Position numbers and translations under genes: made by a program. A stretch of 648 nt of DNA, taken from the NCBI RefSeq assembly GCF_003334315.1, contig NZ_QOWR01000130.1, one strand, 5' to 3'. The notes beneath the pieces were generated by a model that ran no database searches, was not told the DNA's origin, and saw nothing but the letters and a program-made list of their open reading frames with translations. Source of the stretch: Escherichia coli. Its GTDB lineage: Bacteria; Pseudomonadota; Gammaproteobacteria; Enterobacterales; Enterobacteriaceae. Position 1 is the stretch's first letter. Each line of letters starts with the position of its first letter. Shown piece after piece: positions 1-648 of the stretch.

Positions 1-438
1 AGGCCGCAGTCGGTAACCTCGCGCATACAGCCGGGCAGTGACGTCATCGTCTGCGCGGAAATGGACGAACAGTGGGGCTATGTCGGGGCTAAATCGCGCC
101 AGCGCTGGCTGTTTTACGCGTATGACAGTCTCCGGAAGACGGTTGTTGCGCACGTATTCGGTGAACGCACTATGGCGACGCTGGGGCGTCTTATGAGCCT
201 GCTGTCACCCTTTGACGTGGTGATATGGATGACGGATGGCTGGCCGCTGTATGAATCCCGCCTGAAGGGAAAGCTGCACGTAATCAGCAAGCGATATACG
301 CAGCGAATTGAGCGGCATAACCTGAATCTGAGGCAGCACCTGGCACGGCTGGGACGGAAGTCGCTGTCGTTCTCAAAATCGGTGGAGCTGCATGACAAAG
401 TCATCGGGCATTATCTGAACATAAAACACTATCAATAA
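1..438 (+). CDS. insB: IS1 transposase InsB reading frame (C-terminal part of the InsAB' frameshift-fusion transposase); 5'-partial at window edge
   Basis: Frame 1 is open from position 1 ([145 protein letters not shown]) with a TAA stop at 436..438. The ATG at 61 reported by the ORF track is an internal methionine. From established knowledge, InsB is expressed as InsAB' via a -1 frameshift at a site just upstream of this window, not from that ATG. Confidence 0.92.
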
Positions 439-453
439 GTTGGAGTCATTACC
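431..453. repeat. IS1 terminal inverted repeat (right end, IRR), ~23 bp
   Basis: The IS1 terminus GGTAATGACTCCAACTTATTGAT appears as its reverse complement at the element boundary. The exact inner limit of the IR is approximate. The insB stop codon lies inside it. Confidence 0.8.
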
Positions 454-648
454 CCAAACATCATATAATAATTGATATAAATTATACAAACCCAAAGGAT
501 CCATCCTTATTATCGGATTCAGTGGGTAATTATACAGGTTCCATCCCCCCTCCAGCCCAATGGGGTCTTGTGTAATATACCGCCCCTGCAACGGATCGTA
601 GTACCGGTGACGGTTATAGTACAGCCCTGATTCCTCATCATGCTGCTG
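454..648 (-). pseudogene. Rhs-family (YD-repeat / RHS repeat-associated core domain) protein, 3' end of core plus first 11 codons of the C-terminal variable region; interrupted by IS1, 5'-partial at window edge
   Basis: Minus-strand translation from 648, with no stops: [65 protein letters not shown]. This contains the hallmark Rhs core terminus ([10 protein letters not shown]...GRYI(T/S)QDPIGL...NLYxYxxNP....DPxGL), with [10 protein letters not shown] encoded at 487..516. The frame runs directly into IS1 sequence at 453. GC-rich core-like codon usage at 541..648 gives way to very AT-rich sequence at 454..~500, as expected at a core/toxin boundary. Confidence 0.85.

Follow-up and report, generated by a model that had tools for sequence, protein, structure and literature searches.

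The window considered here, a stretch of DNA of 648 nucleotides analysed over its whole length, joins the end of an insertion sequence to the end of an rhs gene. This raises the question of which organism carries such a junction, by which event it was formed, and what it leaves of the Rhs protein. The window very probably holds the right end of an IS1A-type element where it meets a chromosomal rhs gene, of the allele known from the RhsE locus, in E. coli sensu lato (including Shigella), and the gene is expected to be a pseudogene without its toxin. An Rhs toxin gene cut by IS1 is ordinary, well-described biology, and nothing in it is new. As context, the value of the result is that the origin is fixed as an E. 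coli/Shigella chromosome.

The features of the window are collected in Table 1. The IS1/Rhs boundary is exact at 453/454: the alignment with the rhs gene of E. coli CP53 is identical from position 648 down to 454, and no alignment is found beyond. The composition shifts at the same point, with a G+C content of 55% at 1-453, 15% at 454-486, and 50% at 487-648. The truncated rhs gene lies on the minus strand and is convergent with the IS1 transposase frame. In a search for structured RNA, no Rfam family was detected at threshold within the window.

Table 1. Features of the 648-nucleotide window, with positions counted from its first letter.
Feature	Positions	Strand	Basis and remarks
IS1 (IS1A type), 3' 453 bp of the 768-bp element	1..453	+	100% identity to IS1A-family copies
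IS1 transposase reading frame, C-terminal part (insB' portion), frame 1	1..438	+	NF033558 match; stop at 436-438
IS1 ORF in the program-made list	61-438	+	
IS1 right terminal inverted repeat (IRR)	431..453		Reverse complement is GGTAATGACTCCAACTTATTGAT; equals the IRR of complete copies
First 9 target bases, CCAAACATC, predicted target-site duplication	454..462		Predicted for a simple insertion
Rhs variable C-terminal toxin domain (CT), codons 1-11	454..486	-	Identical to the CT start of the intact CP53 gene
Rhs core, last 54 codons	487..648	-	Translation and profile matches; ORF runs past 648
PxxxxDPxGL motif, core/toxin boundary	487..516	-	Translation; Enterobacteriaceae motif definition (PMC3150448)
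DPIG of the aspartyl-protease signature	556-567	-	Followed by 18 residues, then DPLG
Read-through of the rhs frame into the IS1 end, 26-residue tail and stop (373-375)	373..453	-	Translation

The left part of the window belongs to IS1, an element of 768 bp with terminal inverted repeats that generates target duplications of 8-9 bp and is found across enteric bacteria (PMC12428005). The first letter of the window falls near IS1 position 316, which leaves 59% of the element, its right-hand side, inside it; the left inverted repeat and the A6C frameshift site of insA/insB' belong to the part outside. The translation of 1-438, from the IS1-type DDE transposase InsAB', matches the C-terminal 118 positions of the NCBIfam equivalog NF033558 (transpos_IS1; profile 82-199 of 199) with 138 bits, at a cut-off of 100 bits. 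Full-length E. coli copies of IS1 measure 768 bp, with GGTGATGCTGCCAACTTACTGAT at the left end and GGTAATGACTCCAACTTATTGAT at the right end, and positions 1-453 of the window show one mismatch to the corresponding 3' part of the complete IS1A copies in EC09 (L002) and in a second locus (L013). On plasmids of E. coli, Salmonella enterica, and Shigella sonnei, copies of the IS1A family match the segment at 100%.

The same segment is present in 5,223 of the 5,426 complete E. coli genomes searched with megablast, and the median genome has 11 such places. In the plasmid collection, the best 5,000 records are all at least 99% identical to it. These comprise 2,571 records from Escherichia, 1,668 from Klebsiella, 304 from Salmonella, 199 from Enterobacter, 97 from Citrobacter, and 89 from Shigella, as well as a few from Providencia and Serratia. 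The original prediction had relied on IS1 as an enterobacterial marker that is especially abundant in Shigella. The element is indeed present; it occurs natively in essentially all E. coli and has expanded more than any other insertion sequence in Shigella (PMC7373316). Taken alone, it is weak evidence of an E. coli/Shigella origin, because identical plasmid copies occur in Klebsiella, Salmonella, Enterobacter, Citrobacter, Providencia, and Serratia.

The right part of the window encodes the end of an Rhs core on the minus strand. Its translation corresponds to the last 54 positions of the profile NF041261 (RHS_core, 1208-1261 of 1261) with an E-value of 6.7e-31; the whole-protein cut-off of this profile, 2000 bits, is out of reach for a fragment of 54 residues. 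Against TIGR03696, the core end scores 73.6 bits (cut-off 32.5). The autoprotease signature DPxG-(18)-DPxG and the boundary motif PxxxxDPxGL are both found in the translation. In the paired DPxG motifs, the catalytic aspartate of C-terminal autocleavage sits in the second motif (PMC8636562), while PxxxxDPxGL marks the border of the variable C-terminal toxin domain in Enterobacteriaceae (PMC3150448). The core is followed by 11 residues of the toxin domain and then by the IS1-encoded tail of 26 residues. The previously proposed likeness to E. coli Rhs core ends is upheld by 100% nucleotide identity in E. coli.

The taxonomic origin can be read from this flank. When positions 454-648 were searched against the complete E. 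coli genomes, as had been proposed with the original prediction, 195 of 195 bases were identical in at least 30 chromosomes (E = 8e-97), an agreement well outside anything that chance would give. Overall, 110 records match at 99% or more, 1,219 at 95-99%, and 2,186 at 80-90%, the last of which we take to be other rhs paralogues. Nearly all matching places in these genomes are chromosomal (9,917 of 9,925). Across taxa, the flank identity is 95.9-100% in E. coli, about 77-83% in Klebsiella and Salmonella, and 60-80% in Burkholderia, Ralstonia, Halomonas, and others. In the all-taxa plasmid set, searched at blastn sensitivity, the best match is again to E. coli (95.9%), followed by E. coli, Klebsiella, and Salmonella at 77-83%, and Burkholderia, Ralstonia, Halomonas, and others appear in the 60-80% band only. 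The best matches therefore lie within Enterobacteriaceae, with E. coli leading at 100%, and the enterobacterial (E. coli/Shigella-type) origin that had been predicted is confirmed by a flank that is 100% identical to E. coli chromosomes at a conserved locus. The species-level signal comes from the Rhs flank and not from IS1. Protein relatives with a named source are overwhelmingly from E. coli, in addition to Shigella sonnei, E. albertii, and other Enterobacteriaceae; a few lower-ranked matches are named Serratia, Streptococcus infantis, and Halomonas/Vreelandella.

A peptide-pattern scan of the GTDB species representatives returned six loci. Three of these are genuine Enterobacteriaceae, namely Trabulsiella guamensis, T. 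odontotermitis, and Superficieibacter, with protein identities of 41-80%. The other three are contigs of metagenome-assembled genomes (MAGs) labelled Collinsella sp., Sporosarcina psychrophila, and Bacillota, and their protein identities of 84-97% could suggest a non-enterobacterial source, such as a gut Collinsella or a member of the Bacillota, that had acquired an rhs segment. Such a source is hardly credible. The contigs are MAG fragments of only 1.2-3.5 kb, and the whole 1,212 bp of the Collinsella contig (L003, JAIJJM010000863.1) match the E. coli CP53 locus at 98.1% identity. Likewise, E. coli chromosomes match all 3,534 bp of the Bacillota contig (L005, JAEWTL010000046.1) at 99.5% identity. 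Both carry an E. coli-type ISAs1 and ydcD context, which marks them as misbinned E. coli contigs, and they match the window flank at only 95.9% and about 80%, respectively, compared with 100% for E. coli. For the Sporosarcina contig (L004, DYWT01000153.1), a local comparison places its Rhs and ISAs1 segments at 87-97% identity to E. coli loci. All three are probably binning contaminants in public MAGs. Given the whole-length E. coli identities, a non-enterobacterial origin drawn from the MAG matches was rejected as contamination.

With the origin in E. coli sensu lato, the interrupted gene can be placed. In CP53, the identical segment of 195 bp is part of an intact rhs gene encoding 1,402 amino acids (L001 5599-9807, minus strand; WP_122056947.1). 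This gene is located directly downstream of vgrG and upstream of ISAs1/ydcC-pptA-yddH-nhoA-yddE-narI (narV in K-12). Linkage to vgrG, or else a PAAR-like N-terminus, is what would be expected of an effector delivered by a T6SS. Comparison of CP53 with K-12 MG1655 gives 98.7% identity in the flanking genes and 93% in the core, and by this comparison the neighbourhood is that of the K-12 RhsE locus. The E. coli gene with the 100% identical segment contains the YD-repeat Pfam domains PF05593, PF25023, and PF03527 and ends in a CT of 145 residues, after which small ORFs follow. As only 11 of the 145 CT residues are left in the window, 134 are displaced by IS1.

The displaced CT (L001 5599-6033, minus strand) is glycine-rich, with repeated motifs that include GHAGLGVAFA, GHAGIGGGINAA, GGGVGGHFA, and GIGAGV. 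It has no family match in Pfam, NCBIfam, or the PDB sequences, and is thus regarded as an uncharacterised Rhs toxin. A membrane-active role may be guessed from its composition, and this is only a guess. The ORF following the toxin (L001 5193-5587, minus strand; L002 3319-3699) opens with MKKYIFLVLFLLCGCS, a lipoprotein-like signal. The CP53 annotation divides it into two small hypothetical proteins and the EC09 annotation gives a single "RHS element protein dsORF-e4"; it looks like an immunity gene with a frameshift in CP53. An IS1A copy with the 9-bp duplication CACAATAAA is inserted about 12 codons into this putative immunity gene in EC09. Further downstream of the rhs module, a short and highly diverged remnant of an IS1-family transposase is annotated in both strains (CP53 L001 5073-5171; EC09 L002 3199-3297). 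A relationship of the window IS1 to this remnant was ruled out, since the match extends over just 29 bases at 83%; the remnant is hence an old, unrelated IS1-family relic at the locus.

The exact junction was searched for in several collections. A megablast search with the whole window did not find an identical junction in the 5,426 complete E. coli genomes, where the best full-length match in a single piece is 93.1% identical and lies in a different rhs gene. A 50-mer across 453/454 had no match in the JGI metagenome contigs, and a 36-mer spanning the junction had none in the GTDB species representatives. At the protein level, a search with the fusion peptide of 91 residues returned other IS1/rhs fusions only and not that of the window. 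The modelled fusion protein of 1,295 residues has no exact record, and its homology search gave no match at 100% coverage. The source is presumably a strain outside the collections searched.

Absence from all complete RefSeq genomes of E. coli would also be compatible with a source in Shigella or enteroinvasive E. coli (EIEC) with an expanded IS1 population, a reading that is plausible and yet falls somewhat short of being probable. Shigella and EIEC genomes carry hundreds of IS insertions, of which 42-73% are IS1 (PMC7373316), and Shigella sonnei is represented both by Rhs proteins among the relatives and by a plasmid with the identical IS1 3' segment. However, E. coli strains with at least 40 IS1 places occur among the complete genomes. 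Moreover, strain-private IS1 insertions are common, and strain-specific ones beside rhs ends occur in ordinary E. coli. The assignment made here stays with E. coli sensu lato, Shigella included.

Turning to the event itself, IS1 prefers AT-rich targets. In the proposed mechanism, the element would have transposed by simple insertion into a very AT-rich target located 11 codons past the PxxxxDPxGL boundary. The insertion would have cut 134 of the 145 toxin residues off from the Rhs shell with its autoprotease, and would have added an IS-encoded tail of 26 residues to the truncated Rhs. A simple insertion further predicts a 9-bp duplication, CCAAACATC, at the left end of the element outside the window. 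Four of the five related IS1/rhs junctions that were examined are simple insertions with 9-bp duplications. On this analysis, a simple transposition of IS1 with a 9-bp duplication is the most likely event behind the junction.

The nearest known arrangement is that of EC09, which would allow a different course of events. EC09 has the identical flank and an IS1A copy in the same orientation, one mismatch away from the window IS1 and 451 bp further out from the window breakpoint. IS1 causes deletions adjacent to its insertion site. The element could therefore have entered an EC09-like neighbouring site first, and an adjacent deletion starting from its right end could then have removed the toxin-coding DNA up to position 454. 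In STEC388, an IS1 copy lies beside an rhs end without a target duplication, and deletions are mentioned in the literature (PMC12428005). Still, a deletion is unlikely here, as the EC09-type arrangement is rare, the 9-bp duplications are carried by four of the five related junctions, and no feature of the window demands one.

Simple insertion, the preferred event, makes specific predictions for the sequence beyond the window. In that case the left flank should read CCAAACATC, with ...GAATCATCATG and the remaining toxin-coding DNA ahead of it. On the left side, a further 315 bp of IS1 are expected beyond the window, followed either by CCAAACATC, the 400 bp of toxin-coding DNA that were displaced, and an immunity gene, or by the endpoint of a deletion. 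On the right side, the rhs core should run on for about 3.7 kb before vgrG is reached. By either mechanism, the product of the truncated gene would be the same, namely a shell with its autoprotease and without a toxin, and we infer that the gene is a pseudogenised effector. Insertion sequences are well known to cause gene decay in E. coli, above all in Shigella, and the window adds one more polymorphic-toxin gene inactivated by such an element.

Other rhs genes are interrupted by IS1 at comparable positions. At least four genomic junctions (L010-L013, each at 3453; in rhsC, rhsB, and the rhs gene of ATCC 8739) have breakpoints 3-13 codons past DPLGL in complete E. coli genomes. About eight further junctions derive from partial proteins, and their breakpoints start within the core end and reach as far as 41 residues beyond DPLGL. 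In STEC388 (L010 1-3453), two IS1A copies bracket the gene of the heat-stable enterotoxin ST-II (stb) beside rhsC. The missing target duplication at the copy abutting rhsC suggests a composite transposon or recombination, and not a simple insertion.

It is conceivable, if distinctly doubtful, that the AT-rich start of Rhs toxin-coding regions, their first few dozen bases, is a preferred landing site of IS1. Within about 40 bp, at least four events compare with about one expected at random, a possible enrichment by an estimate that ignores clonality, non-essentiality, and AT preference. Within about 800 bp, 33 genomes compare with about 20 expected, which by this rough estimate is no clear enrichment. 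The IS1/rhs queries used were biased in orientation and position. If the preference were real, IS1 would recurrently disarm Rhs effectors shortly past the DPxGL cleavage motif, or would provide portable homology for swaps of toxin tips.

Compared with known systems, the IS1 part of the window has no distinctive feature. It shares the transposase C-terminus, the right inverted repeat, and the AT-rich target with IS1 of the IS1A/IS1E consensus type, as known from E. coli K-12 and enterobacterial plasmids. The Rhs part is closest to the intact, vgrG-linked alleles of the RhsE locus exemplified by CP53, which agree with the window in every residue of the core end and of CT positions 1-11; unlike in CP53, the toxin domain of the window is cut off by IS1. 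The rhsE pseudogene of K-12 is more distant and carries another CT. Its last core stretch of about 160 bp (L009 5328-5488, aligned with window positions 488-648) is 81% identical, compared with 93% for the core upstream, and the exchange point of the toxin tip thus seems to lie upstream of DPxGL rather than at the motif. The IS1-interrupted rhs genes described above represent independent events that differ from the window in the nucleotides of the junction, the rhs paralogue, and the CT type, and the junction of the window occurs in none of them. In IS1 orientation and read-through tail, however, the loci of ATCC 8739, STEC388, SEV1, and 806883-9-2019 correspond to the window, and the partial proteins P0001-P0004, P0007, P0008, P0016, and P0044 are E. 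coli Rhs fragments that end in the same tail of 26 residues.
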